This document shows positions 6,002-25,663 of a stretch of DNA of 32,000 nt, piece by piece. The notes below the pieces were generated by a model, which did not search any database, was not told where the DNA came from, and saw only the letters and a program-made list of their open reading frames with translations. Source of the DNA: Moraxella nasicaprae (GTDB lineage Bacteria; Pseudomonadota; Gammaproteobacteria; Pseudomonadales; Moraxellaceae); assembly GCF_025643275.1 (NCBI RefSeq), contig NZ_CP089977.1:1950001-1982000 (forward strand). Direction: 5' to 3'. The translations under genes were made by a program, and so were the position numbers. Position 1 is the first letter of the stretch. The number at the start of each line of letters is the position of its first letter.

Positions 6002-6407
6002 AATTAACTTGCAATAACACTGTTTGACAATGTCGCTATTATAGCATTTTGCCAATAAAATCGCTAATGCTTGTTATCCGACTGATGCTTAATGGGTAAA
6101 ATAATCAATCAGATTACCCTTGACAAAAACAGTATGCAAAAAGGTGTGCTTTGCTTATCTGCTTAAAAACTGATTTTGTATTTTTCACAAAAAGCCACCA
6201 ATCAGTTGCCCAAGTCGTTCCATACTCGCTATCATTGGTTTGACTGATTGATGGTAAAGATTTGATGGATAAATTGGCAGCCAATGGCTTGTGTACGTAC
6301 TTTTTATGGATAAAAATTTGGCAATCAGGCTGACCATCATGGATACCTTGTGTCTGATGGGTCTAACCAAACACCATCAGACGAATAAGAAATTTTGGTT
6401 CTGGTTC

Positions 6408-6520
6408 AAAAAGTATGCCACAAAGAAAACCGTTCGTGGTGAGCTTGTCAAGCCGCTACTATCTTCCCAACCGCAGGCAAGTTAATGGCGAACGAAAAAA
6501 CCTAGTTTGGCATACTTTTT
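6408..6520. repeat. 113-bp palindromic MITE/REP-like element with perfect 13-bp terminal inverted repeats
   Basis: AAAAAGTATGCCA (6408-6420) is the exact reverse complement of TGGCATACTTTTT (6508-6520). There is an inner inverted pair CGTTCG (6431-6436) / CGAACG (6489-6494). It lies in a 558-bp noncoding gap. Confidence 0.55.
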
Positions 6521-6572
6521 AGACCTTAGACCGCCGCCGAAATTTTAAGGTGAAGGCGTTTTAAAGATGTTA

Positions 6573-6607
6573 AGAAAAAAGAGCGATGATGTCTCGCTCT
6601 TTTTTAT
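6573..6607 (-). terminator. Rho-independent terminator of purD (A-run / 8-bp stem / T-run, potentially bidirectional)
   Basis: AAGAGCGA (6579-6586) pairs with TCGCTCTT (6594-6601) across a 7-nt loop. It is flanked by A6 and T6 runs and lies a few nt after the purD stop. Confidence 0.8.
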
Positions 6608-6613
6608 CGGCAG

Positions 6614-7885
6614 TCATCGATTGATGGCACGCCAGCCAATATCACGACGATATTGCATGCCATCAAAGTGAATGTCTTTGATGGCTTCTAGGGAGGTGGT
6701 TTGTGCGGTGGCAATATCATCTGCCAGTGCAGTGACGCACAGTACTCGTCCACCATCGGTAACAATGTTGCCATCAACCTGTTTTGTGCCAGCATGAAAT
6801 ACTTTGATGGCAGGATTGTTGGTGGACAATCCTGTGATGACATCGCCCTTGGAGCTACTTTCTGGGTAGCCACGACTGGCAAGCACTACACCTAAGGCAA
6901 CCTGTTTCGACCAGTCGGCATGAGCAGGTAGATTGCCTGCCAAGCCCTGTTCAATCAGATGTACCAAAGAGCTTTCTAGTCGCATCATGATGGGCTGCGT
7001 CTCAGGGTCGCCAAATCGGCAGTTAAATTCAATGACTTGTGGATTGCCACATTCATCAATCATCAAGCCTGCATATAAAAAGCCTGTATAAGGCGTGCCA
7101 TGATTTGCCATTGCATCAACCACAGGACGAATGATACGCTCAATGACTTTATCATGTACTGACGGAGTAACAACAGGAGCAGGGGAATATGCACCCATGC
7201 CACCAGTATTTGCCCCCAAGTCGCCCTCAAAGATGCGTTTGTGGTCTTGGCTGGTTGCCATTGGTAGGATATTTTTGCCATCAATCATGCAGATGAATGA
7301 GGCCTCCTCGCCAGCCAAAAATTCTTCGATGACGACACGACTGCCAGCATCGCCAAATTTATTGTCCGCCAACATATCATCTACGGCAGCAAATGCTTCC
7401 TCTTGATTGGTGGCGACAATCACACCCTTGCCAGCCGCCAGACCGTCTGCCTTGATGACAATGGGCGTGCCTTTGGCAACGATGTAGTCTTTGGCAGCAT
7501 GAGCATCGGTGAAGACTTCATAAAAAGCGGTGGGAATGTTGTGCTGTTTCATAAAGGCTTTGGCAAAAGCTTTTGAGCCTTCCAGCTGAGCACAATATTG
7601 TGTTGGCCCCCAAATGGCAATGCCAGCCTGACGCAAATCATCAACCACGCCAGCAACCAAAGGTGCTTCTGGGCCAACCAGCACGAAAGCAACATCGTTG
7701 TTTTGGCAAAATGTGATGAGCTGTTCATGATTGGCGATGTCCAAATCGACATTTTGTAGTTTTGGCTCAGTGGCTGTACCAGCATTACCTTTGGCAACAA
7801 AGACAGTGCGTACTCGTTCATCTTTGGCACACGCCCAAGCTAAGGCGTGCTCTCGTCCACCTGTACCCAAGACCAAGATATTCAT
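6614..7885 (-). CDS. purD: Phosphoribosylamine-glycine ligase
   Basis: MNILVLGTGGREHALAW start, an ATP-grasp core, and FNCRFGDPETQ. The length (423 aa) is typical. Confidence 0.95.
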   Translation of the reverse strand: MNILVLGTGGREHALAWACAKDERVRTVFVAKGNAGTATEPKLQNVDLDIANHEQLITFCQNNDVAFVLVGPEAPLVAGVVDDLRQAGIAIWGPTQYCAQLEGSKAFAKAFMKQHNIPTAFYEVFTDAHAAKDYIVAKGTPIVIKADGLAAGKGVIVATNQEEAFAAVDDMLADNKFGDAGSRVVIEEFLAGEEASFICMIDGKNILPMATSQDHKRIFEGDLGANTGGMGAYSPAPVVTPSVHDKVIERIIRPVVDAMANHGTPYTGFLYAGLMIDECGNPQVIEFNCRFGDPETQPIMMRLESSLVHLIEQGLAGNLPAHADWSKQVALGVVLASRGYPESSSKGDVITGLSTNNPAIKVFHAGTKQVDGNIVTDGGRVLCVTALADDIATAQTTSLEAIKDIHFDGMQYRRDIGWRAINR

Positions 7886-7958
7886 AAAACTTCCTATTTA
7901 TTGAAACAATCGTTTAAAATATTGATGATGGCTGAACAATTTGACCATCATGAGTGTA

Positions 7959-8591
7959 TTAGGCGACAGAGAGGACAAATTTATCGCCATTGATGCCTGC
8001 TGTCATTGTGTCGCCAGCGGTAAGTTTACCCACGCCCTTTGGTGTGCCAGTATAAATCAAATCACCTGCTCTTAGACCAAAATGTCGATGCAGATAATCA
8101 AGCTGGTAAGCAATATCAAAAATCATTTTATCGGTGGTGTCGTGCTGACGAACTTCGTCATTAACCGACAAAAAAAGCTCACAGACATCAGGCGTGCCAA
8201 GTGTTAAAGGAGATAGCCAAGCTGCATCTTTAAATCCTTTGGCAAGCGTCCATGGCAAGCCTTTTTCTTTGAGTTTGGCTTGAATATCTCTGGCGGTCAA
8301 ATCAAGCCCAACACCATACGCCTGCACGCATTCAACGGTTGCCACTGCATCATCAGCCACATCTTGACCGATGTATAAAACCAGCTCAACTTCGTGATGA
8401 ATGTCATTTGAAAAGGAGGGTAGTGTCAAGGTATTGGCGGTGGTTAAGGCGGTGGTTGGTTTTAAAAAAACCACAGGTTCGCCTGTTGGCGTGTTGCCAA
8501 GTTCGCTGATATGCTCAGCATAACTGCGTCCAATACAATAGATGTTATTGATGATGGCGGTATCGCCAGTGGTAAAATGCACAGTTTTCAT
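7959..8591 (-). CDS. Small FAH-family protein (YcgM/FAHD1-like)
   Basis: IYCIGRSYAEHISELG, HHEVELVLYIG, GVGLDLTARDIQ and GDLIYTGTPKGVG match the fumarylacetoacetate hydrolase fold. Start taken at ATG 8591 (MKTVHFTTGD). Confidence 0.75.
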   Translation of the reverse strand: MKTVHFTTGDTAIINNIYCIGRSYAEHISELGNTPTGEPVVFLKPTTALTTANTLTLPSFSNDIHHEVELVLYIGQDVADDAVATVECVQAYGVGLDLTARDIQAKLKEKGLPWTLAKGFKDAAWLSPLTLGTPDVCELFLSVNDEVRQHDTTDKMIFDIAYQLDYLHRHFGLRAGDLIYTGTPKGVGKLTAGDTMTAGINGDKFVLSVA

Positions 8592-8766
8592 CAGATGACC
8601 GAGTAAATTTTTTGCCAAAGAAATAACCAAATAATGCCCCTTATCATATCAAAAAACCTGCACAAAACAAAGTCATTTCTGGCAAATTTTAGCCTTTGTT
8701 TGACGGATTGATGAAATGGATAGTGGGTCGTTTGAGGCAATCAAACCGACCAATTTATTGGCAATA

Positions 8767-10782: not shown

Positions 10783-11106
10783 CGCAGTCTCCTAATGCTA
10801 ATGAAGGGAGGAATGAGCCATATCATAAGATAAAAATTTTTAAAAGACAATACTTTTTTTATGAAAAAAAGTTATAAAAATACGAGTGATTGTATCGCCA
10901 TATTAGCTTATTTAAATCACCAAATAGATAATATTTTGATGGCTGTGCCAACAATCAGTGGTGTGTGAGTTTTTATAACCAAAAATGATGAAAAATACAA
11001 AAAGCATAAATAAAATTTGTCGAAAGCCTACACCAAACACAAAAAATCGTGTATGATGGTGGTATTTATGGTTTAAGTCGATATTTTGATAGAAGGATAC
11101 CGAGCA

Positions 11107-12210
11107 ATGAGCGAAAACACCCCCATCAATACCGATGAAATTCAAGCTCACCGCCGCAGAATTGATGTGATTGACGAGCAAATTCAGCAACTCATCAATC
11201 AGCGTGCTAAAATCGCCCAAGAAGTCGCTGTGGTCAAAAAAAATCATGGCGACCACCCAATTTTTTATCGTCCAGAGCGAGAGGCTCAGGTGCTAAAAGC
11301 CGTCATGGCTCGCAATGAAGGGCCGCTGTCTGGCGAAAAAATGGCTCGTCTGTTTCGTGAGATTATGTCGGTGTGCTTGGAGCTAGAAGAGCCGCAACGA
11401 GTGGCATTCTTAGGGCCTGTGGGGACTTTTACGCACGCTGCTGCACTCAAACACTTTGGCAAAGCTGCTACGACCGTTTCTTTGACAACCATCACCGATG
11501 TCTTTCGTGAGGTGGAGTCGGGCAATGCCATGTATGGTGTTGTGCCTGTCGAAAACTCATCAGAAGGCGTGGTTAACCATACTTTGGACGCTTTTTTGTC
11601 ATCAACACTAAAAATCATCGGTGAGGTAGAACTACCCATTCATCATCATTTCTTGGTGGCAGAACACACCCGAGTGGAGAGCCTAAGTCGTATCTATGCT
11701 CATCAGCAAGCGTTGGCACAATGCCGTCATTGGCTGGATGTGAATTTTCCCAATGTGGAGCGAGTGGCGGTATCCAGCAATGGTGAGGCAGCTCGTCGTC
11801 TGCAAAACGAATGGCATTCAGCAGCGATTGCAGGCGAAGTGGCGGTGGCTGAATATGGTCTGCACAAATTGCATGAAAACATCGAAGACAATCCAGGCAA
11901 TACCACCAGATTCCTCATCATCGGTCGTGAAGAAATTGCACCGTCAGGTACGGATAAAACTTCAATCATGGTGTCAAGTCCTGATAAGGCGGGGGCATTG
12001 CTTGAATTATTACAACCTTTGTACAAGCATGGTGTATCCATGACCAGCATCGAAACTCGTCCAGAAAGACCTAATAAGTGGTCGTATGTGTTTTTCATTG
12101 ACATGGACGGACATATCAGCGATGAAAGCGTATCGACAGCGATTGATGAAATGAGAGTGCTTGCCAAAGAGCTGCGGATTTTGGGTTCGTATCCAAAGGC
12201 AGTGCTATAA
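11107..12210 (+). CDS. pheA: Bifunctional chorismate mutase / prephenate dehydratase (P-protein)
   Basis: CM domain (RRRIDVIDEQIQQLINQRAKIAQEV), PDT domain (VAFLGPVGTFTHAAA, VPVENSSEGVV, TRFLII) and C-terminal ACT (SMTSIETRP). Start at the ATG MSENTPIN, preceded by AGGA. Confidence 0.93.
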   Translation: MSENTPINTDEIQAHRRRIDVIDEQIQQLINQRAKIAQEVAVVKKNHGDHPIFYRPEREAQVLKAVMARNEGPLSGEKMARLFREIMSVCLELEEPQRVAFLGPVGTFTHAAALKHFGKAATTVSLTTITDVFREVESGNAMYGVVPVENSSEGVVNHTLDAFLSSTLKIIGEVELPIHHHFLVAEHTRVESLSRIYAHQQALAQCRHWLDVNFPNVERVAVSSNGEAARRLQNEWHSAAIAGEVAVAEYGLHKLHENIEDNPGNTTRFLIIGREEIAPSGTDKTSIMVSSPDKAGALLELLQPLYKHGVSMTSIETRPERPNKWSYVFFIDMDGHISDESVSTAIDEMRVLAKELRILGSYPKAVL

Positions 12211-12243
12211 TCATCAAGGGGCAAATACTTTAACACAGGCAAA

Positions 12244-14553
12244 ATGCCAAGATGTACTGGTATGAATAAGATAAGACAGCCAATTTTTGACCAGATTTGT
12301 GTGGTTGGGCTTGGTTTGATTGGTGCGTCCTTTGTGCAGGCATTGGTGCAAGCAAACCAAGACACGCCATTGATGCGTCGTATCGTGGCGGTGGATAGCA
12401 ATGAGCGAAGTATTCGATTGGCTTGCCAAGCAGGTCTGATTGCAGAAGGTCATACTGATTTATCGCAAGTTGCACAGGGGTCAGACCTGATTGTCTTGGC
12501 AACGCCTGTGCAATCCATACCAAAGTTATTTGCCCAAATTCATGCCTTATCAACGCTTAAAAAATTACCAGAGCATTGCATCATCAGCGATGTTGGCAGC
12601 ACCAAAGCTGATTTATTGCAAGCAGCTCGGCAGATTTTTGGTCAGCATCATCGATTTATTGGCGGACACCCGATTGCAGGAGCGGAAAATTCAGGCTTTG
12701 AAGCCCGAAAAGGCGATTTGTTTGTTCGGCACAAATTGATTTTATGCCCTGATAATCATAGCGATGCCAAAGACATACAAAAATTACAAGCCTTATGGCA
12801 GGCATTGGGTGCTGATGTGGTATTGATGTCAAGCGATAGGCATGACCAAGTGCTGGCTTACACCAGTCATTTACCGCATTTGCTAGCATTCTCCCTGACG
12901 CATCAATTAGCAGAGCATGACGATAATTTAGATATTTTGCGATATGCCGCTGGGGGATTTCGAGATTTTAGTCGCATTGCTGCCAGCGATCCACAAATGT
13001 GGCACGATATTTTCTTGGCAAATAAGACAGCGATTTTGCAGGCGTTGGACGAGTTTTCGGCACATTTGGGCGAATTTCGCCAGCTGATACATCAAGAGCA
13101 GTCGCAGTCATTACTGGCTTGGCTTGGCAAATCAAGAGATGTTCGCAGGCATTTTGGGCATATGCTCACCAGTCACGATACCAGCCATCATTCATCTACC
13201 CATCAGGATATTTATATGACCAATCAAAGCTATCATATTAAACCCGCCCAATCCATCTTGGGTACGATTACTGTACCAGGCGATAAATCTATCTCTCATC
13301 GTTCCATCATGTTTGGTTCTTTGGCTGATGGTGTGACCAAAGTCAGTGGATTTTTGCAAGGTGAAGATGCGTTGGCAACCCTGCAAGCATTCAGCGACAT
13401 GGGTGTCAAGATTGAACGAGAGGGCGACCAAGTAGTGATTCATGGTGTGGGCATTGATGGTCTTAATGCACCAAATAAGCCTTTGTATATGGGCAATAGT
13501 GGCACAAGCATGCGTTTATTGGCAGGAATTTTATCCGCTCAGCAGTTTGATAGTGTCATGACAGGCGATGTCAGCTTATCAAAAAGACCCATGGAGCGAG
13601 TTGCTAAGCCACTGCGTCAAATGGGGGCGATAATCCAGTCCACGGGCGAAAAAGGCACAGCACCATTATCCATCACAGGTGGTCAGTCTTTGACAGCCAT
13701 TGATTATACTTTGCCTGTGGCGTCAGCACAGATTAAATCCTGTCTGATTTTGGCGGCTTTATGGGCAAAAGGTACAACCACCATTACTGAGCCTGAGATT
13801 AGCCGAGACCATACAGAAAGAATGCTTAATGCCTTTAATTATCCTGTACACAGCAAAGATGGTGTCATTACAGTAACGGGTGGTGGTCGCTTGACTGCGT
13901 GCGATATTATCGTGCCAGCTGATATTTCAAGTGCTGCGTTTTTTATGGTGTTGGCGGCAATCGGTCAAGGAGAGGGACTGACCATCAAAAAAGTTGGCAT
14001 GAATCCCACTCGCACAGGCGTGATTGATATTTTAACATTGATGGGTGCAGACATTAGCATCACTAATGAAACTGTGGTGGGTGGCGAACCAATCGCTGAT
14101 ATTATCGTCAAGCCATCGCAGCTGATGGGCATTGATATCCCAGAACATTTAGTGCCGTTAGCCATTGATGAATTTCCTGTTCTGTTTGTGGCGGCAAGCT
14201 GTGCCATTGGCAAAACAACCCTAACAGGTGCCAAAGAACTAAGGGTCAAAGAGTCTGACCGTATTGCGGTGATGGCGGAGGGTTTGACCACTTTGGGTAT
14301 CGAATGCGAGGTGCTTGATGATGGCATGATTATTCATGGCAAGGGTAAGGCAGGGGAAACGACAGCGATTTTTGGTGGCGGAGTCATTGAAAGTCATCAC
14401 GACCATCGCATTGCGATGAGTTTTGCGGTGGCAAGCGTCAGAGCGTCCGATGACATCATTATTCATGGCACGCAGACGGTAAACACCAGCTTTCCAAATT
14501 TTGCCAATCTTGCCAATCAAGTGGGTCTGAACATTCAGGTTATTGATGAATGA
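12244..14553 (+). CDS. aroA: Fusion: prephenate/cyclohexadienyl dehydrogenase (TyrA) plus 3-phosphoshikimate 1-carboxyvinyltransferase (AroA)
   Basis: N-terminal VVGLGLIGASF Rossmann and GGHPIAGAENSG (TyrA). From about residue 330 come PGDKSISHRS, LYMGNSGTSMRLL, ELRVKESDRI and DHRIAMSF (EPSP synthase). The start is uncertain between ATG 12244 and ATG 12262. Confidence 0.92.
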   Translation: MPRCTGMNKIRQPIFDQICVVGLGLIGASFVQALVQANQDTPLMRRIVAVDSNERSIRLACQAGLIAEGHTDLSQVAQGSDLIVLATPVQSIPKLFAQIHALSTLKKLPEHCIISDVGSTKADLLQAARQIFGQHHRFIGGHPIAGAENSGFEARKGDLFVRHKLILCPDNHSDAKDIQKLQALWQALGADVVLMSSDRHDQVLAYTSHLPHLLAFSLTHQLAEHDDNLDILRYAAGGFRDFSRIAASDPQMWHDIFLANKTAILQALDEFSAHLGEFRQLIHQEQSQSLLAWLGKSRDVRRHFGHMLTSHDTSHHSSTHQDIYMTNQSYHIKPAQSILGTITVPGDKSISHRSIMFGSLADGVTKVSGFLQGEDALATLQAFSDMGVKIEREGDQVVIHGVGIDGLNAPNKPLYMGNSGTSMRLLAGILSAQQFDSVMTGDVSLSKRPMERVAKPLRQMGAIIQSTGEKGTAPLSITGGQSLTAIDYTLPVASAQIKSCLILAALWAKGTTTITEPEISRDHTERMLNAFNYPVHSKDGVITVTGGGRLTACDIIVPADISSAAFFMVLAAIGQGEGLTIKKVGMNPTRTGVIDILTLMGADISITNETVVGGEPIADIIVKPSQLMGIDIPEHLVPLAIDEFPVLFVAASCAIGKTTLTGAKELRVKESDRIAVMAEGLTTLGIECEVLDDGMIIHGKGKAGETTAIFGGGVIESHHDHRIAMSFAVASVRASDDIIIHGTQTVNTSFPNFANLANQVGLNIQVIDE

Positions 14554-16087: not shown

Positions 16088-17107
16088 ATGACCACAACAC
16101 AAAATCAAGAAAAACCCCTTAAAAATCAACACATTCTGCTACAACCCTTGCAAATAGGGGGTTTGACGATTGAGAACAGATTGTGCGTTGCACCGATGGC
16201 AGGGGTGACGGATAATCCGTTTCGAAAATTATGCAAATCTTTTGGAGCAGGGCATGCGGTCAGCGAGATGATTATTGCTGATACCGCTCTTTATGCTCGC
16301 AAAAAGTCTTTGTATCGTGCCAATTTTGATGGAGAAATTGCCCCGATTTCTGCCCAAATTGCAGGGGCTGAACCTGATAAATTGGCAGATGCGGCTCGTT
16401 TTCAAGTGGATAATGGGGCTCAGATTGTGGACATCAATATGGGGTGTCCTGCCAAAAAAGTGTGCAAAAAATTAGCAGGCTCAGCATTACTACAAGATGA
16501 GGATTTGGTCAAACGCTTGCTTGATACAGCGGTCAATGCGGTTAATGTGCCTGTGACGCTCAAAACTCGCTTGGGTTTTGCCAATGGTCAGGAAAATATC
16601 CTCAGTGTTGCTAAGATTGCTGAGCAGGCAGGCATTGCTGCCATTGCCATTCATGGACGCACCAGAGAGGATTTTTATACAGGGCAGGCTCGTTATGAAT
16701 TGATTAAAGAAGTCAAACAATCCATCAATATTCCTGTGATTGTCAATGGTGATATTGACAGTCCAGCCAAAGCGGTGGCGGTGCAGGCAATGACAGGTGC
16801 AGATGCGGTGATGATTGGGCGGGCGGCACAGGGTCAGCCGTGGATTTTTAGGGATATTGCTCATTTTGTTAGGACTGGCGAAGTACCGCCAGCACCTAAC
16901 CTTACCGAGCTTCGTCAGATTGTCTTGGCTCATTTGGAGGAGTTGTATCGTTTTTATGGCGAATATTCTGGGTGTCGCATTGCTCGCAAACATATTGCTT
17001 GGTACACGGGAGGCTTGCCCAATTCTAACGCATTTCGTGAAGCAATGTATGCTTGTCAAACAACTGATGAGCAATTTGCCGCTGTGGCAAATTTTTTATC
17101 TGACTGA
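16088..17107 (+). CDS. dusB: tRNA-dihydrouridine synthase B
   Basis: VAPMAGVTDNPFR, DINMGCPAKKV, TLKTRLG, AIHGRTR and NGDI are the characteristic Dus TIM-barrel motifs. Confidence 0.93.
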   Translation: MTTTQNQEKPLKNQHILLQPLQIGGLTIENRLCVAPMAGVTDNPFRKLCKSFGAGHAVSEMIIADTALYARKKSLYRANFDGEIAPISAQIAGAEPDKLADAARFQVDNGAQIVDINMGCPAKKVCKKLAGSALLQDEDLVKRLLDTAVNAVNVPVTLKTRLGFANGQENILSVAKIAEQAGIAAIAIHGRTREDFYTGQARYELIKEVKQSINIPVIVNGDIDSPAKAVAVQAMTGADAVMIGRAAQGQPWIFRDIAHFVRTGEVPPAPNLTELRQIVLAHLEELYRFYGEYSGCRIARKHIAWYTGGLPNSNAFREAMYACQTTDEQFAAVANFLSD

Positions 17108-17126: not shown

Positions 17127-17519
17127 TCAAATCCCACAAAGTTCTTGGCGTAAATCATCGGCGATGGTTTCCTCATTGATGACTTCCCAGTCGCCTTCGC
17201 CTAAGTTTTCGCCAACGATTTCATCATCAGACCAATAAAATTCATCATCAACACGCACCATGTTATTGGAGCAATCAAGCTTCCAATGCTCAATGGATGA
17301 ATTGTACGATGTGACCCCATCATCTAAATATCGCCACTCATCATAGATGGCAGCAACATGAAGGGTATAGTCGCCCAGCTCGTCAAGCTCCAAGCTGTCT
17401 AAGTCATAATAAAAGTCAGTGTTGTCAGTGCTGTTAGAAAAATATGTCCAATCTTCTGCCAAAGCGTGTTGAGCAAATAATAGACTGGCACATAAAATCA
17501 ATGAACGCATCAGTTGCAT
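17127..17519 (-). CDS. Small secreted acidic protein, possibly adhesin-E-like fold
   Basis: Signal peptide MQLMRSLILCASLLFAQHALA. The W..F....DFYYDLDS...KLDC...W..I....C pattern with two Cys resembles the surface-adhesin E family, judged from memory only. Confidence 0.45.
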   Translation of the reverse strand: MQLMRSLILCASLLFAQHALAEDWTYFSNSTDNTDFYYDLDSLELDELGDYTLHVAAIYDEWRYLDDGVTSYNSSIEHWKLDCSNNMVRVDDEFYWSDDEIVGENLGEGDWEVINEETIADDLRQELCGI

Positions 17520-17550: not shown

Positions 17551-18462
17551 TTAAGCTGATTGATGATGACCCCAAGCACTGACATATTTTGCCAAAAAAT
17601 TCTCAAAAGCTGCGGTGGCTGGGGTAATGGAGCGATGTTTGTTTTTGTAAAGCAAAAATTTGCGACTAATGACAGGTTCGCTGATTGGTACCATTACAAG
17701 CCCTTGTTCCTTGACCCAAGCATCAGCATAGCTGAGTGCAACCGTGATACCAAGACCCATTTTGACCATGCCTAATGCGGTGGATAAAAAATTAACCTCA
17801 TAATCGCTACGAAACAGTCGAGAACTGATGTCCAAAGGCAATTCATCAGCAATCTGCTTGGCAAAGGGTTCTTGTAGGGTAATTAGGTCATTTTCGCCCA
17901 AATCACGCCAAGTGAGCTTTTGGCGGTCGGCAAGTGGGTGGTCTGGGCGTAGCACCAAGCAAAAGGGCGAAGTAAACAGCTCATTAGCAACCACATCGGC
18001 ACTAAATGGATACTCAGGACCAATGCCTAAATCAGCGTCCAAGATTTGCACTTGATTGATAACATCTTCGATGGAGCAGTCAATCAAATTTACCTGAATA
18101 TCAGGATAGGTCAGTTTAAATTGACGAATCAACTCAGGCATCGCTGATGCAGCCAGTTGTTGTGGGGCAGCGATACGCACTTTGCCCTGATGAAAGTCTT
18201 TGAGGTCAGCAATTTCATTGCCCAAAAGCTGCATGTCGTGCAAGACTCTTAGGGCGTGTGGCAGGATTCTTTCGCCTGCATCTGACAGATGAATTTGGCG
18301 AGTGGTGCGGTCAAACAATCTGGTGTCAATATGCCGCTCCATTTCTTTAATCAGACCGCTTAGCGATGATTGGGTTAGGTGCAGCTCATCAGCGGCTTTG
18401 GTAAAACTTTTATGGCGGGCTACACTGGTGAAGGCTTTAAGCTGGCGAAAAGTGATATTCAT
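17551..18462 (-). CDS. LysR-family transcriptional regulator, divergent from hppD
   Basis: N-terminal wHTH MNITFRQLKAFTSVARHKSFTKAADELHLTQSSLS plus a LysR substrate-binding domain. Start at ATG 18462. The ORF-track start is a TTG. Confidence 0.9.
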   Translation of the reverse strand: MNITFRQLKAFTSVARHKSFTKAADELHLTQSSLSGLIKEMERHIDTRLFDRTTRQIHLSDAGERILPHALRVLHDMQLLGNEIADLKDFHQGKVRIAAPQQLAASAMPELIRQFKLTYPDIQVNLIDCSIEDVINQVQILDADLGIGPEYPFSADVVANELFTSPFCLVLRPDHPLADRQKLTWRDLGENDLITLQEPFAKQIADELPLDISSRLFRSDYEVNFLSTALGMVKMGLGITVALSYADAWVKEQGLVMVPISEPVISRKFLLYKNKHRSITPATAAFENFLAKYVSAWGHHQSA

Positions 18463-18689
18463 TGAAATATCCAATAAATTAGTCAAAAAAACAATTTGTA
18501 CATTTGGTGCGGCTATTTTATGATAGCAAGCACGAATTTGACAAGTATTATCTTTGGTATCTGATGATTTATTTTACAAAGACATCATAAAATACCAAGC
18601 CAATGCTGGTGAATTGGATTGACTTATCCGTTGCGATGAGTTGTGTGTTACCTAAGTGCAATATCGCACATCATTAAGGAATGATTGTT

Positions 18690-19778
18690 ATGGCAGATTT
18701 ATTTGAAAATCCAATGGGATTAAACGGTTTTGAATTTTTGGAATTTTCAAGCCCAAATGAAGGTTTCTTAGAGCCAATTTTTGAAAAAATGGGCTTTACC
18801 GAAGTGGCTCGCCACCGCTCAAAAGATGTTTCACTATATCGTCAAGGCGGTATCAATATCCTAATCAACCGCACCAAAAACAGCCAAGCCTACTACTTTG
18901 CCCAAGAGCACGGTGCTGGGGCGTGTGCGATGGGCTTTCGTGTTAAGGACGCCAAATTTGCCTATGAAAGAGCCATTGAATTGGGTGCTGAACCTGTGGA
19001 AGTCAAAACCAACCCAATGGAGCTAAAACTGCCAGCGATTAAGGGCATTGGCGGCTCGCTCATCTATTTTATTGACCGCTATGAAGACGGCAACACCATT
19101 TATGATGTGGATTTTGAATTCATCGAAGGTGTGGACAGAAACCCTGTTGGCTTTGGCTTTAAGGTCATTGACCACCTAACGCACAACCTGTATCGTGGTC
19201 GTATGGACTACTGGTACAATTTCTACCAAAAATTCTTTAACTTCCAAGAAATCCGCTACTTTGACATCAAAGGCGAATATACAGGCTTGGCAAGTCGTGC
19301 CTTGACCGCCCCAGATGGCAAAATCCGTATTCCACTAAACGAAGAGTCCAAGCAAGGCGGCGGACAAATTGAAGAATTTTTGATGAAGTTTAATGGCGAG
19401 GGTATTCAGCACATTGCGTTCTTGTCAGATAATTTGCTTGAAAGCATTGACAAACTTCGTGCCGCAGGCGTGCCACTTGCCACCGCACCAAAAGATACCT
19501 ATTATGAAATGCTAGAAGAACGCTTGCCAGGACACGGTGAGCCTGTGGCAGAATTGCAAGCCCGCGGCATTTTGCTAGATGGTACGACCGAAGATGGTAC
19601 GCCACGCCTACTATTACAGATTTTCTCTGAAACCTTGATGGGACCTGTGTTCTTTGAATTTATCCAAAGAAAAGGCGACTATGCACAAGGCTTTGGCGAG
19701 GGTAACTTTAAAGCCCTATTTGAGAGCTTAGAGCGAGACCAAATCCGCCGTGGCGTGCTAGAAGTACCAGCCGAATAA
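18690..19778 (+). CDS. hppD: 4-hydroxyphenylpyruvate dioxygenase
   Basis: [26 protein letters not shown] and [31 protein letters not shown] are diagnostic. Start at ATG 18690, 10 nt after AAGGA. Confidence 0.93.
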
Positions 19779-19817
19779 TTTTAATTAGACGATAATTAAA
19801 GTTGAATGCAAATTGAT

Positions 19818-19863
19818 AAAGGCGGATTGTATTTTTATTATAAAAAAATATCGTCCGCTTTTA
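19818..19863 (+). terminator. Hairpin plus T-tract after hppD
   Basis: GGCGGA (19821-19826) pairs with TCCGCT (19854-19859), with one G-U pair. The AT-rich internal stem extends the hairpin, and TTTT follows. Confidence 0.55.
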
Positions 19864-19957
19864 TCTAAACATATTTTAAAAATTGGTTATGATTTTTAAT
19901 ACAGTTTAATCACGATTTTATTAAAAATTTGCCCATTTTAAATTAAGGAAAAACATT

Positions 19958-20503
19958 ATGGCTATCACACAAGGTGTACACCATGTCGCCTACCGCTGTA
20001 AAGATGCTAAAGAAACGGTAGAGTGGTATCAAAAGCATCTGGATATGGATTTTGTTTTGGCAATTGGCGAAGATAAAGTGCCGTCCACAGGCGAGGAAGA
20101 CCCCTATATGCACATCTTTTTGGACGCAGGGGGCGGTAATATTTTAGCGTTTTTTGAATTGCCGACCCGTCCAGAAATGGGGCGAGACCCCAACACGCCC
20201 ATTTGGACGCAGCATTTGGCATTAAAGGTGGAAAGTATGGAAAAACTCCTTGCCACCAAAGAAAAATTGATTAAGGACGGCATTGATGTCATTGGTCCAA
20301 CCAATCACACGCTGTTTCATTCCATTTATTTCTTTGACCCCAACGGACACCGCATTGAACTGGCGTTTGATGTAACGACCGAAAAACAGTCAAAGGCACT
20401 TGATAAGGTCAAATGGGATATGCTAAACGAATGGGCGGTTACCAAAAAAGCCCCTAAACACGCCAGATGGGTACACGATGGCACCGAACCGCCAGAAGTA
20501 TAA
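19958..20503 (+). CDS. Single-module VOC (glyoxalase/extradiol-dioxygenase superfamily) metalloenzyme
   Basis: GVHHVAYRC (first His ligand), TQHLALKV (second His) and GHRIELAF (Glu ligand) fit the paired beta-alpha-beta-beta-beta VOC pattern. A good RBS (TAAGGAAAAA) precedes it. Confidence 0.8.
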   Translation: MAITQGVHHVAYRCKDAKETVEWYQKHLDMDFVLAIGEDKVPSTGEEDPYMHIFLDAGGGNILAFFELPTRPEMGRDPNTPIWTQHLALKVESMEKLLATKEKLIKDGIDVIGPTNHTLFHSIYFFDPNGHRIELAFDVTTEKQSKALDKVKWDMLNEWAVTKKAPKHARWVHDGTEPPEV

Positions 20504-20508
20504 GCGAT

Positions 20509-20569
20509 AAAAACCGCCTAAATGTCATTTTAAATTGATTTTAAAATAAAGAACAATGGGCGGTTTTTT
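20509..20569 (+). terminator. Long hairpin plus T6 after the VOC gene
   Basis: AAAAACCGCC (20509-20518) pairs with GGCGGTTTTT (20559-20568). The 40-nt loop itself contains ATTTTAAA / TTTAAAAT. Confidence 0.6.
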
Positions 20570-20663
20570 ATGCCATATTGGATTTATTTTTAAAAAATCA
20601 AATATGATGATGATTAAAATTGATGTATAATCTAATTTTAAGCAAAATTTTAAGGAAAAAAAG

Positions 20664-21662
20664 ATGAAATTAGCCACTTTAAAAAACAACAGCCGAGACG
20701 GTCGCCTTGTGGTGGTAAGCCGTGATTTAAGCCGTTATAGCGAACCTGATATTGCCACCTTGCAAAACGCCCTTGACGACTGGGCAGCCGCCAAAGAACA
20801 GCTACAAGCGGTCTATGATAAGCTAAATGACGATGAAAGTTTTGGCACGCCTTTTGACCAAAACGCTTGCCACTCGCCCTTACCCAGAGCCTATCAGTGG
20901 GCGGACGGCTCGGCGTATCTGAACCACGTGGAGCTGGTACGAAAAGCAAGAAATAGCGAGGTGCCAGAGTCATTCTATGATGATCCATTGATGTATCAAG
21001 GCGGTTCGGACAGCTTTATCGCTCCAAGAGGTGATGTACTTGCCAAAAAAGAGTGGGGCATTGACCTAGAAGCCGAAGTGGTGGTGGTATCTACCGATTT
21101 GCCGATTGGGGCAAGTCCAGAACAGGCTGGTAAGGCGATTGCACTCATTGGACTTGTCAATGATGTTTCCCTGCGTAACCTTATTCCTAGCGAACTTGCC
21201 AAAGGCTTTGGTTTCTTGCAATCAAAACCAGCTTCAGCTTTTAGCCCTGTCTTTGTAACGCCTGATGAGCTGGGCTGTGCGTGGGCGGATAATAAGGTGC
21301 ATTTGCCCCTAAATGTAGAGATTAACGGCAAGCCCTTTGGTTGCCCCAATGCAGGCGTGGATATGACCTTTGACTTTGCAAGGCTTTTGTCGCACCTTGC
21401 CAAAACTCGTGAGATTGAAGCGGGGACGATTGTCGGTTCTGGTACGGTGTCTAACAAACAAGGCAATCTGTACGGCTCATCGGTAGAACACGGCGGTGTT
21501 GGCTACTGCTGTATTGCTGAGGTGCGTATGTATGAGACCATTGAGAGTGGCAAACCCCAAACCGAATTTTTGGATAATGGCGACACTGTCAAGATTTATA
21601 TGAATGACAAAGACGGCAACAGCATTTTTGGCGAGATTGTTAATACGGTGAAGACGATTTGA
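20664..21662 (+). CDS. FAH-family hydrolase, 332 aa; candidate fumarylacetoacetate hydrolase of the cluster
   Basis: N-terminal MKLATLKNNSRDGRLVVVS domain followed by a FAH fold (GIDLEAEVVVV, LVNDVSLRNL, GTIVGSGTVSN). It is shorter than the roughly 430-aa canonical FahA. Confidence 0.75.
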   Translation: MKLATLKNNSRDGRLVVVSRDLSRYSEPDIATLQNALDDWAAAKEQLQAVYDKLNDDESFGTPFDQNACHSPLPRAYQWADGSAYLNHVELVRKARNSEVPESFYDDPLMYQGGSDSFIAPRGDVLAKKEWGIDLEAEVVVVSTDLPIGASPEQAGKAIALIGLVNDVSLRNLIPSELAKGFGFLQSKPASAFSPVFVTPDELGCAWADNKVHLPLNVEINGKPFGCPNAGVDMTFDFARLLSHLAKTREIEAGTIVGSGTVSNKQGNLYGSSVEHGGVGYCCIAEVRMYETIESGKPQTEFLDNGDTVKIYMNDKDGNSIFGEIVNTVKTI

Positions 21663-21702
21663 TTATTTGGCTTTGCCGATAAATGGCTTAAAATGTCAAT
21701 GA

Positions 21703-21743
21703 ATGGTCGTGTGGTTTTGTTTGGATTGCACGACCATTTTTGA
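21703..21743 (+). terminator. Rho-independent terminator after the FAH gene
   Basis: AATGGTCGTG (21703-21712) pairs with CACGACCATT (21730-21739), followed by TTTT. Confidence 0.75.
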
Positions 21744-21764
21744 TTATAATACAAAATATTTTAT

Positions 21765-21796
21765 GATGACAAGGGTATGAGTTATAATGTCATCAA
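21765..21796. promoter_or_regulatory. 8-bp inverted repeat TGATGACA / TGTCATCA bracketing a TATAAT box upstream of the NhaC-family gene
   Basis: Arms at 21765-21772 and 21789-21796. TATAAT at 21784-21789 lies between and partly within the arms. This is an operator-over-promoter geometry. Confidence 0.4.
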
Positions 21797-21815
21797 ATGG
21801 TTATAAGGAATTTTT

Positions 21816-23201
21816 ATGAGCAATCAAACCCCTCTTCTACACCTAACCCCCAAACAAGCCGTCCCCATTGCCGTCATCGTGGTCTTTGTGCTGGCTTTGA
21901 CGATGATTAAATGGGGCTTTGTGCCCTTGTTGTCGCTACTGATTGTCATTTTAGGTCTGTTGCTGTTTGGTTTGTCAAAGGGGCTAAAATTTGACGATAT
22001 GCAAGAGCGAATGATAGGCGGCGTGTCCACAGGTATGGGGGCGATTTATCTGTTTTCGTCCATCGGTCTTTTGGTGTCTGCTTTGATGATGAGTGGGGCG
22101 ATTCCCACTTTGATGCATTATGGTTTTGGGGTGTTAAGTGCCGAGTGGTTTTATCTGTCTGCCTTTATTTTGTCAAGCGTGGTGGGCTTGGCGTTGGGTA
22201 GCGGTTTTACCACTTGTGCCACCGTGGGTGTGGCGTTTTTGGGCATGGCAAGCGGTTTTGGGGCAAATCCTGCGATTGTCGCAGGAGCGGTGGTCTCTGG
22301 GGCGTTATTTGGCGATAAGATGTCGCCTTTGTCCGACACCACCGCCATTGCCGCAAGCATTGTGGGCGTGGATTTGTTTGACCATATCAAAAATATGATG
22401 TACACCACCATTCCTGCGTGGCTGATTACCGCCATTATTTTTATGTTTATGCCGTCAGCGACAGGCGATTTGTCGGCGGTGGTAGAATTAAAAGACAATC
22501 TGTTAAAAAGCGGATTGGTGCACGGATATACATTAATTCCCTTTGCCATTTTGATTGTGATGGCTTTGATGAAAATCAACGCCATCTACGCCATTTCAGC
22601 CAGCATTGTTACCGCCATTGTGCTAACCTACACCCATTCTAACCCCACCTTATCACAAATGGGTGGCTGGTTCTTTACAGGCTATGCCTTGCCAGAGGGT
22701 GTGGATTTGGGCGATGTGGGCAAACTGGTTTCTCGTGGCGGTTTGCAAAGTATGTTTTTTACCCAAATTTTGGTGATTTTGGCATTATCCTTAGGCGGAC
22801 TGCTGCAAGGTCTTGGTATTTTGCCTGCCCTACTTGATGGAATGAGACACCTACTTACCAAAGCCTCTCGTGGTGTGGCAGCCGCTGCCTTTACTTCCTT
22901 TGGTATCAATATCTTGGTAGGCGAACAGTATTTGAGCCTATTATTATCAGGCAACGCCTTTTTGCCAGAATATAAGCGTTTGGGACTGCACCCAAAAAAT
23001 CTATCACGCACCATTGAGGACGCTGGTACGGTCATCAATCCCCTTGTGCCGTGGGGCGTGTATGGCGGATTTTTGACAGGGGTGTTTGGTATGCCTGTGA
23101 TTAGTTATGTGCCATTTGCCTTCTTTTGTTATTTGTGTTTTATTTTGACGCTGATTTTTGGTTTTACTGGATTTACTTTGACCAAAATTAAGCCTGAATA
23201 A
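21816..23201 (+). CDS. NhaC-family membrane transporter (substrate unknown)
   Basis: 461 aa with about 11-12 hydrophobic segments. Gly-rich helices and GDKMSPLSDTT are typical of the NhaC antiporter superfamily. Confidence 0.75.
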   Translation: MSNQTPLLHLTPKQAVPIAVIVVFVLALTMIKWGFVPLLSLLIVILGLLLFGLSKGLKFDDMQERMIGGVSTGMGAIYLFSSIGLLVSALMMSGAIPTLMHYGFGVLSAEWFYLSAFILSSVVGLALGSGFTTCATVGVAFLGMASGFGANPAIVAGAVVSGALFGDKMSPLSDTTAIAASIVGVDLFDHIKNMMYTTIPAWLITAIIFMFMPSATGDLSAVVELKDNLLKSGLVHGYTLIPFAILIVMALMKINAIYAISASIVTAIVLTYTHSNPTLSQMGGWFFTGYALPEGVDLGDVGKLVSRGGLQSMFFTQILVILALSLGGLLQGLGILPALLDGMRHLLTKASRGVAAAAFTSFGINILVGEQYLSLLLSGNAFLPEYKRLGLHPKNLSRTIEDAGTVINPLVPWGVYGGFLTGVFGMPVISYVPFAFFCYLCFILTLIFGFTGFTLTKIKPE

Positions 23202-23208
23202 TGCCAAT

Positions 23209-23236
23209 GGGGTGTGTTGTTGCACGCCCTTTTTTT
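23209..23236 (+). terminator. Short GC hairpin (one bulge) plus T7 after the transporter gene
   Basis: GGGGTG (23209-23214) pairs with CACgCCC (23223-23229), followed by TTTTTTT (23230-23236). Confidence 0.55.
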
Positions 23237-23256
23237 ATATTTTAAAGGAAAAAACA

Positions 23257-23892
23257 ATGAAACTTTATTCGTATTTTAGAAGTTCGGCAAGTTATCGGGT
23301 GCGTATTGCCCTAAATATTAAAAATTTGCCTTATGAGATTGTCCCTGTTCATTTGGTTAAAGGCGAACAAAAATCAGACGATTATAAAGCCAAAAACCCA
23401 AGTGGTCTTATTCCTGCTTTGGAATTAGAAAATGGCAAAGTGATTACCCAATCAATGGCAATTTTGGATTATTTGGAAAATGAATATCCAGCCATACCAT
23501 TATTACCAAAGGATAATGTCAATAGAGCCATTGTTTTGTCAATGTGCAATATCATTGCTTGCGATACCCACCCTTTAAATAATTTAAGGGTGTTAAAATA
23601 TTTAACAGGCGAATTAAATATCAGTGATGAGCAAAAACAAGATTGGTATGCCCATTGGATTTTGGTGAATTTTACTGCCTTAGAAGAATTATTAAAAGTT
23701 CATAGCGGTCAATACTCGTTTGGTGATGAAATTACTTGGGCGGATATTTGTTTAATCCCACAAGTGTATAATGCCAATCGCTTTAAGGTGGATTTGACCA
23801 ATTTTCCTAATATTTTAAAAGTGGTGGAAAATTGCCAAACATTAGAGGCGTTTATCATAGCCAGTCCAGAAAAACAAGTGGATTTTGAATGA
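23257..23892 (+). CDS. maiA: Maleylacetoacetate isomerase (zeta-class GST)
   Basis: MKLYSYFRSSASYRVRIALNIK is the zeta-GST signature. Start at the ATG after AAAGGAAAAAACA. The ORF-track start at 23212 lies inside the upstream terminator. Confidence 0.9.
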   Translation: MKLYSYFRSSASYRVRIALNIKNLPYEIVPVHLVKGEQKSDDYKAKNPSGLIPALELENGKVITQSMAILDYLENEYPAIPLLPKDNVNRAIVLSMCNIIACDTHPLNNLRVLKYLTGELNISDEQKQDWYAHWILVNFTALEELLKVHSGQYSFGDEITWADICLIPQVYNANRFKVDLTNFPNILKVVENCQTLEAFIIASPEKQVDFE

Positions 23893-23952: not shown

Positions 23953-25446
23953 TTATACTCTAAATTGTGGTAGCAATGCAGGAATGCCAGGAAGCATACC
24001 AACCGCTGCCATAATGGCACATAAAATCGCAAAACCTACCAAAGGAATAATCACTCGTCCGCTTAGACCCAATTCACGACTGCGTTCTTTGTCGCCAATC
24101 AAGCCCAAGTTGTCTAGCATCATGGTCAAAGACCAGCCAAATACAGGATTTACTAGGGCAGAAGCAAAGACAACGATGGCAGCAGATTGAGTGGTTTTGC
24201 CTTTACGAGTCATCTCCATGCCAGCTTCAAGCAATGGTACAAATACCGCTACAATCAGGGCAGTGGATAGTACAGGCTGCCATACCGCTAAGTCCATCGG
24301 ATAGCCCCAAAGGCTGGCAATGATACAGAAGACGGCAGTCAAAATTGCACCTGCTGGAATGGGGCGTTTGGCGATGGCGGCAGGTACAATATATGTACCC
24401 CATGATGAGGTAAAGTTAGCACCACCAAGCACAGAGCCTGCCGCTTGACGCAATGAGCAGACAACCATGGTATCATCGATGTTCATGTGTGTGCGTTCTG
24501 AACGCTCGGGATAGCTGATTTTTTGGAAAACTTGGTGACCTAAGAAATCAGGCGACCACATGGCAACCGCCAAAACAGCAAATGGGAATACCACTACAAA
24601 GCTTTTGAAATCAGGCAGACCCAAAGTCCAGCCAGTGCTTTCGCCCCACCAGTAAGCAGGACTCATTGGCGGCAAGCCTGGTGCAGTTTTGAATTCAAAT
24701 GGTGCACCCAAAGCAAAAGCAAGAATACCTGCCAATGCACAACCCACAGGGACGGCAAGCCAGCGTTTTTGCCAATGTTCAAGCAGGGCGTACATAATAA
24801 TCGTGGCTAAGATAATAATGAATGAAATGTGCGGCATGCCGATATTGCTTGCCCAAGCATTCATGTTTTTGACTTGTCCTATTAAGCCAACAAAGCCCAA
24901 GTACAGCAACAATCCGCCCGCCACACCATTACTGGTTAATCTGGCTAAGAGCGAACCTCCTTTAAACACTGCTAAGAGTATCCCAAAAATACCAATCAAT
25001 AAGCCAAACGCCAACGGGTGTCCACCTGCGGTAACCACCAGAGGAATCAGAGGGATTAAAGGGCCGTGTGTGCCAGGTAAGTTTGAGGTTGGTAGAAATA
25101 GCCCTGAAAATAATAGGATAATAACAGAGGCAATAAGCATTTCATATCGGACATTTTCCAAAATGAATGCCTCGCCCAAGCCAAGTGGTGTCGCAAATGC
25201 CGCTGCCATCGCACCAACCATCACGATTTTACCAATTGTACCAGCCATCGCAGGGATGGCATCTTCAAATTCAAATCGGTAATCACGGAAAGGAAGGTTG
25301 ATTGCCCAGCGTTTTGGCTTCATGATTTGTAATTCATGATTTAGATAGGCATCTCTGGACGCAAAACTAGAACTTGGCTTATGTAATTCCTGATAGCTTT
25401 TTGATGACATTTCGTCATCTGACCAGCTGCTATTGACATCACTCAT
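23953..25446 (-). CDS. Polytopic membrane permease of uncertain family (NCS2/SulP-like or DUF3360-like), with a hydrophilic N-terminal tail
   Basis: 497 aa from the ATG at 25446, which follows AAGGAGA. It has at least 12 hydrophobic segments after a roughly 60-aa Ser/Asp-rich cytoplasmic N-terminus. The family assignment is from memory only. Confidence 0.6.
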   Translation of the reverse strand: MSDVNSSWSDDEMSSKSYQELHKPSSSFASRDAYLNHELQIMKPKRWAINLPFRDYRFEFEDAIPAMAGTIGKIVMVGAMAAAFATPLGLGEAFILENVRYEMLIASVIILLFSGLFLPTSNLPGTHGPLIPLIPLVVTAGGHPLAFGLLIGIFGILLAVFKGGSLLARLTSNGVAGGLLLYLGFVGLIGQVKNMNAWASNIGMPHISFIIILATIIMYALLEHWQKRWLAVPVGCALAGILAFALGAPFEFKTAPGLPPMSPAYWWGESTGWTLGLPDFKSFVVVFPFAVLAVAMWSPDFLGHQVFQKISYPERSERTHMNIDDTMVVCSLRQAAGSVLGGANFTSSWGTYIVPAAIAKRPIPAGAILTAVFCIIASLWGYPMDLAVWQPVLSTALIVAVFVPLLEAGMEMTRKGKTTQSAAIVVFASALVNPVFGWSLTMMLDNLGLIGDKERSRELGLSGRVIIPLVGFAILCAIMAAVGMLPGIPALLPQFRV

Positions 25447-25663
25447 GGTGTTCTCCTTAATCGTTGTGATGACAAAATATACCAATCAATCCTTTGCAAA
25501 ACAGCCATTTGCAATCAAAATTCTTTTGATGATTTCCAAGCAATAACTAAGTTTCCTTATTTCGTTGGTTTTTTGCCATGAACTTTTGTTATTTTTGGAA
25601 ACGACTTCCTTTATCTTGGGTTGATTGGCAGTCCAATTTGCTTAAATGATTTAAAGCACCGTG

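Follow-up and report, generated by a model that had tools for sequence, protein, structure and literature searches.

A small VOC-fold protein in the tyrosine-breakdown cluster of Moraxella nasicaprae is probably its homogentisate 1,2-dioxygenase

How is the ring of homogentisate opened when a tyrosine-breakdown cluster contains no cupin-type homogentisate 1,2-dioxygenase (HGD, or HmgA)? This question is raised by a 32,000-nucleotide stretch of Moraxella nasicaprae DNA (contig NZ_CP089977.1, positions 1,950,001 to 1,982,000), referred to here as the window, in whose own numbering all coordinates are given. At 17551-23892, it carries genes for a LysR-family regulator, the 4-hydroxyphenylpyruvate dioxygenase HppD, a 181-amino-acid protein of the vicinal oxygen chelate (VOC) superfamily, a short hydrolase of the fumarylacetoacetate hydrolase (FAH) family, an NhaC-family transporter and the isomerase MaiA. 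In the original prediction for this locus, the VOC protein was put forward as a homogentisate dioxygenase not orthologous to HmgA. Our results support this idea, based on the 62% identity of the protein to the crystallized Acinetobacter enzyme 9U42, on Acinetobacter genetics and on the linkage of the VOC gene to an FAH gene in 63 of 80 related loci. With a probability of roughly 0.88, we regard the protein as an ortholog of 9U42 and as a homogentisate 1,2-dioxygenase that has a VOC fold in place of the cupin fold. Orthology, the ligand and catalytic positions and the pathway context were established here, while the activity and the pigment phenotype are taken from the Acinetobacter literature. 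The idea is right but already known, with the genetics of the ortholog published in 2022 and reports on its structure and activity following in 2025. What the window contributes is a Moraxella ortholog in a slightly different operon.

The VOC gene (19958-20503, plus strand) starts with an ATG that is preceded, at a distance of 8 nucleotides, by an AAGGA ribosome-binding site. In Pfam, its product matches nothing but the broad VOC family PF00903 (63 bits, cut-off 20.6). It stays under the cut-off of every NCBIfam model, with the best scores obtained for catechol 2,3-dioxygenase (33.7 bits, cut-off 320) and for a glyoxalase-like model of the YaeR type (29.9 bits, cut-off 140). There is no hmgA model among its NCBIfam matches, and NCBIfam release 20 (June 2026) holds no model for a family of VOC-type homogentisate dioxygenases. 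Among solved structures, by contrast, there is one strong match and only one: chain A of 9U42 (182 residues; E 7.7e-73, residues 5-174 against 6-177), an Acinetobacter enzyme deposited as homogentisate 1,2-dioxygenase; all further solved relatives have E-values of 1e-8 or higher. Over the aligned part shown, 9U42 is 95% identical to the cluster representative P0121 ('VOC family protein [Acinetobacter baumannii]'), which in turn shares 62% identity with the window protein (E 2e-82). The closest named match is from Moraxella bovoculi (92% identity), and 16 family members from several orders, spanning Moraxella, Neisseria, Pelistega, Vogesella and the Comamonadaceae, share 70-92% identity with the window protein and 82 invariant columns. 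The family is compact, since just 81 of 1.84 billion representatives clustered at 50% identity were retrieved at E <= 1e-30, many of them fragments, and its members go by source names such as 'VOC family protein', 'glyoxalase' and 'lactoylglutathione lyase'. As a separate observation, the VOC domain also occurs within three longer chains, P0248 (778 residues), P0340 (517 residues) and P0341 (329 residues); one of them has an unannotated N-terminal region of 600 residues, one has extra VOC domains, and P0341 ends in a C-terminal LuxR/GerE helix-turn-helix. These chains may be real fusions or gene-calling artefacts, and they were rejected as informative fusions, none of them containing an HppD or FAD-hydroxylase domain.

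The residues expected of a metal-dependent oxygenase are in place. Residues H9, E67, H86 and E134 of the window protein align with the glyoxalase I ligands H5, E56, H74 and E122 of Escherichia coli GloA, whose sequence agreed with 1f9z_A at all 135 of 135 residues, and these four columns were still invariant after the addition of relatives with 34-43% identity. In an alignment with the extradiol dioxygenase XylE (1mpy), H86 and E134 correspond to the metal ligands H214 and E265, and H117 and Y124 correspond to H246 and Y255, the catalytic residues of the second sphere. Both H117 and Y124 are invariant in the alignment of 16 sequences, and P0121 from Acinetobacter has them too. The intact His/His/Glu triad described in the original prediction is therefore present, H86 and E134 being identified by the XylE alignment and H9 by its match to H5 of glyoxalase I; beyond this triad, the fourth position of the glyoxalase I type, E67, is likewise invariant. 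Based on these alignments, H9, E67, H86 and E134 are predicted to be the metal ligands, H117 and Y124 may act in the second sphere, and the invariant residues R13, H131 and R132 are candidates for substrate binding. The combination of a ligand set resembling that of glyoxalase I with the second-sphere residues of extradiol enzymes fits a ring-cleavage enzyme that activates O2, and Fe(II) would be the likely native metal. In an AlphaFold2 model (pLDDT 87), the protein folds into two beta-alpha-beta-beta-beta modules followed by a long C-terminal helix, with strands at residues 4-14, 31-38, 50-58, 61-67, 85-91, 111-116, 120-126 and 132-138 and helices at 17-28, 94-106 and 142-162.

Evidence on function comes from Acinetobacter. 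According to PMC13572102, which cites the work, Seo et al. 2025 (Proteins 93:2150) showed the A. baumannii homolog to be a homogentisate 1,2-dioxygenase. Genetic data were provided by Li et al. 2022 (PMC9431530), who found that A. baumannii DETAB-R21 formed pyomelanin when its 'hmgA' was interrupted by Tn2006 and that plasmid-borne hmgA removed the pigment. Their text is silent on which gene this 'hmgA' is, and we mapped the primers of their Table S2 onto an A. baumannii locus (L081) whose VOC gene lies at 8001-8549. The reverse primer exactly matches positions 8528-8549 on the minus strand, where the VOC gene ends; the forward primer is identical to the initial 26 nucleotides of the gene save for one A in a homopolymer run, a one-base difference that left a gapless search of this locus without a match. 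Because both primers map to the VOC gene, the 'hmgA' of Li et al. is the VOC gene, and the pyomelanin phenotype of the Acinetobacter ortholog is the pigment phenotype that the original prediction had named as one of its tests. The same locus contains aroP, fahA (435 codons), maiA, the VOC gene, iclR and hpd, which bears out the earlier remark that Acinetobacter genomes carry hppD, a glyoxalase-like gene, maiA and an FAH gene side by side. Full-text literature searches on VOC-family homogentisate dioxygenases and on fitness data returned nothing relevant, and none turned up 9U42 in a paper.

The name hmgA appears not to have been applied consistently in A. baumannii. In a 2025 study of an A. 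baumannii outbreak (PMC11945678), the 'hmgA' reference is NC_016603.1:3098928-3099560, a gene of 633 bp that overlaps the 'hmgB' gene (1308 bp) by 14 nucleotides. In L081, maiA (7351-7983) and fahA (6057-7364) have exactly the same sizes and overlap, indicating that this 'hmgA' is probably the maleylacetoacetate isomerase gene and not that of the VOC dioxygenase.

The pathway context of the Moraxella gene is provided by the following features:

17551..18486, minus strand: gene for a LysR-family transcriptional regulator, divergent from hppD (PF00126 and PF03466)
18554..18598: imperfect inverted repeat in the intergenic region between the LysR gene and hppD (21-nucleotide arms, 81% complementary)
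18681..19778, plus strand: hppD, 4-hydroxyphenylpyruvate dioxygenase, producing homogentisate (TIGR01263, 384 bits against a cut-off of 277; PF14696 and PF00903)
19815..19865, plus strand: hairpin after hppD with 22-nucleotide arms and a 7-nucleotide loop (pattern match only)
19958..20503, plus strand: probable VOC-type homogentisate 1,2-dioxygenase, 181 residues (62% identity to 9U42 and A. baumannii P0121)
20664..21662, plus strand: short-type FAH-family hydrolase, 332 residues, presumed fumarylacetoacetase (PF18288, FAA_hydro_N_2; PF01557, FAA_hydrolase)
21701..21739, plus strand: terminator-like hairpin followed by a T-rich tail, 3' of the FAH gene (17 pairs counted, G-T pairs allowed)
21816..23201, plus strand: NhaC-family membrane transporter, 461 residues (PF03553; TIGR00931, 361.8 bits, slightly below the cut-off of 370)
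23257..23892, plus strand: maiA, glutathione-dependent maleylacetoacetate isomerase, 211 residues from the ATG at 23257 (TIGR01262, 284.5 bits against a cut-off of 171)

The Pfam and TIGRFAM matches bear out the neighbors named in the original prediction, namely the LysR gene, hppD, the FAH-family gene and maiA. On this basis, HppD would convert 4-hydroxyphenylpyruvate to homogentisate. The VOC enzyme, whose metal is probably Fe(II) coordinated by H9, H86, E134 and perhaps E67, would then bind homogentisate together with O2 and cut the ring beside the carbon that bears the carboxymethyl group, yielding 4-maleylacetoacetate. MaiA would use glutathione to isomerize this product to fumarylacetoacetate, which the short FAH protein would split into fumarate and acetoacetate. 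The LysR-family protein is the probable regulator of the cluster, and the inverted repeat at 18554..18598 may serve as an operator. The NhaC-family protein, whose gene lies between the FAH gene and maiA, may import the substrate and is a candidate transporter for tyrosine or aromatic acids, the counterpart in Acinetobacter being AroP.

The intergenic spacers of the cluster (19779-19957, 20504-20663 and 21663-21815) are unusually long (150-180 nucleotides) and AT-rich. Promoter-like hexamers at 19813-19841 and 19866-19893, again pattern matches only, adjoin the hairpin at 19815-19865, and the core arms of the terminator-like hairpin at 21701-21739 (21702-21711 and 21729-21738, 10 nucleotides each) are fully complementary. 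In view of these long AT-rich spacers, with their hairpins and promoter-like hexamers, the genes may form several transcription units rather than a single operon, and the hexamer and hairpin patterns suggest that the VOC gene may have a promoter of its own.

To place this arrangement in a broader context, we scanned the GTDB species genomes with the family alignment, which identified at least 590 relatives, and kept the best 80 loci from other species with 10 kb on either side. Neighbors were counted by tblastn with the window proteins and with canonical HGD and FAH probes; these probes, human HGD and human FAH, matched TIGR01015 (784 bits) and TIGR01266 (756 bits), respectively, over their full length. 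Greedy clustering of the longest open reading frames (ORFs) was distorted by spurious antisense ORFs in high-GC genomes, and it was used only to find the FAD-hydroxylase and metallo-beta-lactamase (MBL) families discussed below, which were then recounted by tblastn. An FAH gene lies directly 3' of the VOC gene in 63 of the 80 loci, usually starting 530-690 nucleotides after the VOC start, and in 57 of the 72 loci in which the sequence continues for 1.5 kb or more on the downstream side. The partner is of the short type in 43 loci and of the canonical TIGR01266 type, with 45-49% identity to human FAH, in 20. In 19 of the 80 loci, the VOC gene or its operon is preceded at a distance of about 1 kb by a homologous divergent LysR gene, and the full order of the window (LysR, hppD, VOC, FAH, NhaC, maiA) recurs in a metagenome-assembled Neisseria genome (L002) and in Conchiformibius kuhniae (L018), whose NhaC-family transporters occupy the same position and match at 65% identity. 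Counted per locus, maiA is present in 31 of 80 loci and hppD in 11, while canonical HGD is found in none of them, nor in the set of 81 loci that includes A. baumannii L081 (tblastn with the validated HGD probe).

In hmgABC clusters, hmgA adjoins fahA. The same arrangement is given in PMC7646211. Non-orthologous displacement would predict just what is seen here, namely a VOC gene beside either type of fumarylacetoacetase gene and no cupin gene in the vicinity. The short FAH protein itself scores 21 bits with TIGR01266, against a cut-off of 375, and its only solved relative is a structural-genomics entry, 3LZK (E 2e-125). As it alternates with canonical FahA 3' of the VOC gene (43 versus 20 loci), it probably represents a second, poorly documented form of fumarylacetoacetase. 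The window contains another small FAH-family protein (7959-8630, minus strand; 223 residues), which is YcgM-like (PRK10691, 165.7 bits, under the cut-off of 201) and not linked to the cluster.

Several points weigh against the assignment of the VOC protein as homogentisate dioxygenase. The Moraxella protein differs from the characterized Acinetobacter enzyme at 38% of positions, such that its activity would follow by homology; the metal in the 9U42 crystal is zinc and not iron; and the AlphaFold2 monomer superimposes poorly on 9U42 (TM score 0.44, root-mean-square deviation (rmsd) 17 Å). The fit of the monomer to entries for glyoxalase I and FosB is poor as well (rmsd about 13-16 Å, TMq about 0.3), whereas it is good for domains of extradiol dioxygenases and for methylmalonyl-CoA epimerase (rmsd about 4-5 Å). 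Domain-swapped dimers are formed by glyoxalase I and FosB but not by the latter two. From this pattern we infer that 9U42 may be a domain-swapped dimer like glyoxalase I, an arrangement that would be beyond the reach of a monomer prediction. The activity of the Acinetobacter enzyme, moreover, is documented here by the title of the PDB entry and by the citing paper. In addition, that paper describes Acinetobacter sp. Tol 5, which has the cluster, as unable to grow on homogentisate, 4-hydroxyphenylpyruvate or phenylalanine (PMC13572102). In A. baumannii AB4353, Fonseca et al. 2020 (PMC7646211) found no hmgA homolog; they noted the VOC gene, as one with a ring-cleaving-dioxygenase domain, between hmgC and hmgR and guessed that it was inactive, a guess contradicted by the later complementation and reported activity. 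Finally, the absence of a cupin HmgA is established for the 32-kb window, and such a gene could lie elsewhere in the genome.

This last point leads to the alternative that survives best, although we consider it improbable: the VOC protein could be an accessory enzyme or cleave another substrate, such as gentisate or a different para-diol, or detoxify benzoquinone acetate, with a cupin HmgA encoded elsewhere acting as the real homogentisate dioxygenase. In the window, tblastn with the validated HGD probe found no cupin HGD (best E 8.5), and 20 other large ORFs that were scanned have housekeeping functions only according to family scans, among them nudC, a dnaQ-rnhA fusion, purD, pheA, a tyrA-aroA fusion, folB, a gene for a Dus-family dihydrouridine synthase and ThrE, which agrees with the initial claim that a canonical HmgA is missing from this region. 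The search for this enzyme covered the window and the related loci, leaving room for a cupin gene at another site. The gentisate pathway likewise employs enzymes resembling MaiA and FAH, so that their presence would suit this alternative as well. Further room for a different substrate is provided by the gene neighborhoods, since in 38 of the 80 related loci the VOC gene is joined not to hppD but to a gene for a FAD-dependent aromatic hydroxylase. Against this alternative, pyomelanin accumulation is governed by the Acinetobacter ortholog alone, and no hmgA homolog was found in AB4353 (PMC7646211). In 20 loci, furthermore, the partner is a canonical fumarylacetoacetase, with the VOC gene in the place that hmgA occupies in hmgABC clusters, and proteins from the hppD-type and hydroxylase-type contexts are at least 70% identical.

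The hydroxylase of these loci is of the PRK08132 type (about 560 residues; NF006002, 850 bits). Its gene mostly lies directly upstream of the VOC gene on the same strand, and downstream of it in five loci (L044, L052, L065, L066 and L075), and it is usually accompanied by genes for an MBL-fold metallohydrolase (about 325 residues) and an IclR regulator. The FAH gene of such loci is of the short type in 19 cases and canonical in 14, and maiA often follows. The module of MBL-fold hydrolase and FAD hydroxylase is conserved upstream of the VOC gene in many Betaproteobacteria. Examples of loci with these upstream genes are L005, L011, L016, L033, L039, L059 and L078, where the VOC match lies at about 10001. 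Our search for a characterization of this module, including bacterial 3- or 4-hydroxyphenylacetate hydroxylases that form homogentisate, retrieved only fungal or unrelated papers. The set of IclR, MBL-fold hydrolase, FAD hydroxylase, VOC protein, FAH and MaiA looks like an uncharacterized peripheral route into homogentisate, with the hydroxylase perhaps acting on hydroxyphenylacetate. It is tempting to go further and propose that the VOC-type enzyme is the usual homogentisate dioxygenase across much of the Burkholderiales, Rhodocyclales, Neisseriales and Moraxellaceae, its gene being present in no fewer than 590 species genomes, and that the module seen in about half of the loci stands for an undescribed route or a second para-diol substrate; this broader proposal is tentative, and we rate the odds as somewhat against it.

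It is very improbable that the protein is a glyoxalase I or another VOC enzyme without oxygenase activity, such as an epimerase or thiol transferase, that merely happens to be encoded in the cluster. It does retain all four ligand positions of glyoxalase I, its homologs are labeled 'lactoylglutathione lyase' or 'glyoxalase' by their sources, and it shows weak similarity to FosB and methylmalonyl-CoA epimerase. However, the glyoxalase I model TIGR00068 requires 120 bits, of which the protein attains 16.8, and the Fos and epimerase models all stay far under their cut-offs. The conserved operon linkage of the VOC gene to fahA and maiA and the invariance of the extradiol His and Tyr positions likewise argue for ring cleavage, and the Proteins article published by Seo, Hwangbo, Kim and Park in 2025 has the phrase 'without glyoxalase I functional convergence' in its title. 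The least probable view, which takes up the 2020 proposal for A. baumannii and could draw on the failure of Tol 5 to grow on homogentisate, sees in the VOC protein an inactive remnant and in the cluster a pigment-producing dead end, but it conflicts with the removal of pigment by complementation (PMC9431530), with the strong purifying selection evident from 82 invariant columns in 16 sequences of several orders and from 70-92% identity across genera, which excludes a decaying relic, and with the intact downstream fahA and maiA genes, which would be pointless if the ring were not cleaved.

The remaining genes close to the cluster are mentioned for completeness. A membrane protein of 510 residues with a DUF3360 domain (682 bits) is encoded on the minus strand at 23953-25485, converging on the end of maiA, and is absent beside the cluster in the 80 related loci. 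On the other side, between the Dus-family gene (16088-17107) and the LysR gene, lies the gene for a secreted protein of 130 residues (17127-17519, minus strand) with a match to Adhesin_E (surface adhesin protein E, PF16747; 36.8 bits). Two genes of aromatic amino-acid biosynthesis are located at 11086-14553, about 4 kb upstream of the cluster: pheA, encoding chorismate mutase/prephenate dehydratase, and the tyrA-aroA fusion, encoding a prephenate dehydrogenase-EPSP synthase of 769 residues.

Identification of the VOC protein as homogentisate dioxygenase has consequences beyond this locus. It explains how tyrosine can be catabolized without a cupin HmgA and why Acinetobacter turns brown when a 'glyoxalase' gene is disrupted, an explanation that is already published. 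As NCBIfam has no model for the family and annotation pipelines still give its members names such as 'glyoxalase', reconstructed pathways of Moraxella, Neisseria and many Betaproteobacteria will wrongly seem to lack EC 1.13.11.5. In addition, some of the work on pyomelanin in A. baumannii appears to take the wrong gene as "hmgA".

The protein can be compared with several known systems. With the canonical cupin HmgA (TIGR01015; hmgABC of Pseudomonas putida, human HGD) it shares the predicted reaction, its place in the pathway and, in 20 loci, its seat directly upstream of canonical fahA, but it differs in fold and size (a VOC protein of 181 residues versus about 430) and shows no sequence similarity. 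Type I extradiol dioxygenases (XylE, 1MPY; one-domain BphC-type enzymes) have the same VOC fold and aligned ligands and catalytic His and Tyr residues. However, only the part of the catechol 2,3-dioxygenase profile TIGR03211 that covers the C-terminal domain aligns (33.7 bits against 320), and the window protein has a single domain of two modules, unlike the two domains of XylE, would act on a para-diol with a carboxymethyl chain instead of catechol, and carries the additional invariant residue E67. Glyoxalase I (E. coli GloA, 1F9Z) agrees in chain topology and in the four metal-ligand positions but is only 23% identical, and the window protein falls short of TIGR00068 and has a C-terminal extension of 45 residues as well as the extradiol His/Tyr pair. 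PcpA and LinE are two-domain hydroquinone 1,2-dioxygenases of the VOC superfamily, about 320 residues long, which cleave chlorinated para-diol rings. As the precedent on which the original prediction drew, they stand as an analogy but show no detectable similarity in sequence or fold above that of other VOC proteins, since none of their entries appeared among the PDB sequence matches at E <= 1, in a profile search at E <= 0.01 or among the 50 best matches by fold. The closest counterpart is the Acinetobacter enzyme 9U42, which matches the window protein in full-length sequence (62% identity), size (182 versus 181 residues), H/E/H/E and His/Tyr positions, C-terminal helix and hpd, fahA and maiA neighbors. 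The clusters themselves differ, with a LysR instead of an IclR regulator, a short FAH instead of the canonical FahA of 435 residues and an NhaC-family transporter instead of AroP in the window, and with the order hppD-VOC-FAH-NhaC-maiA in Moraxella as opposed to fahA-maiA-VOC-iclR with a divergent hpd in Acinetobacter.

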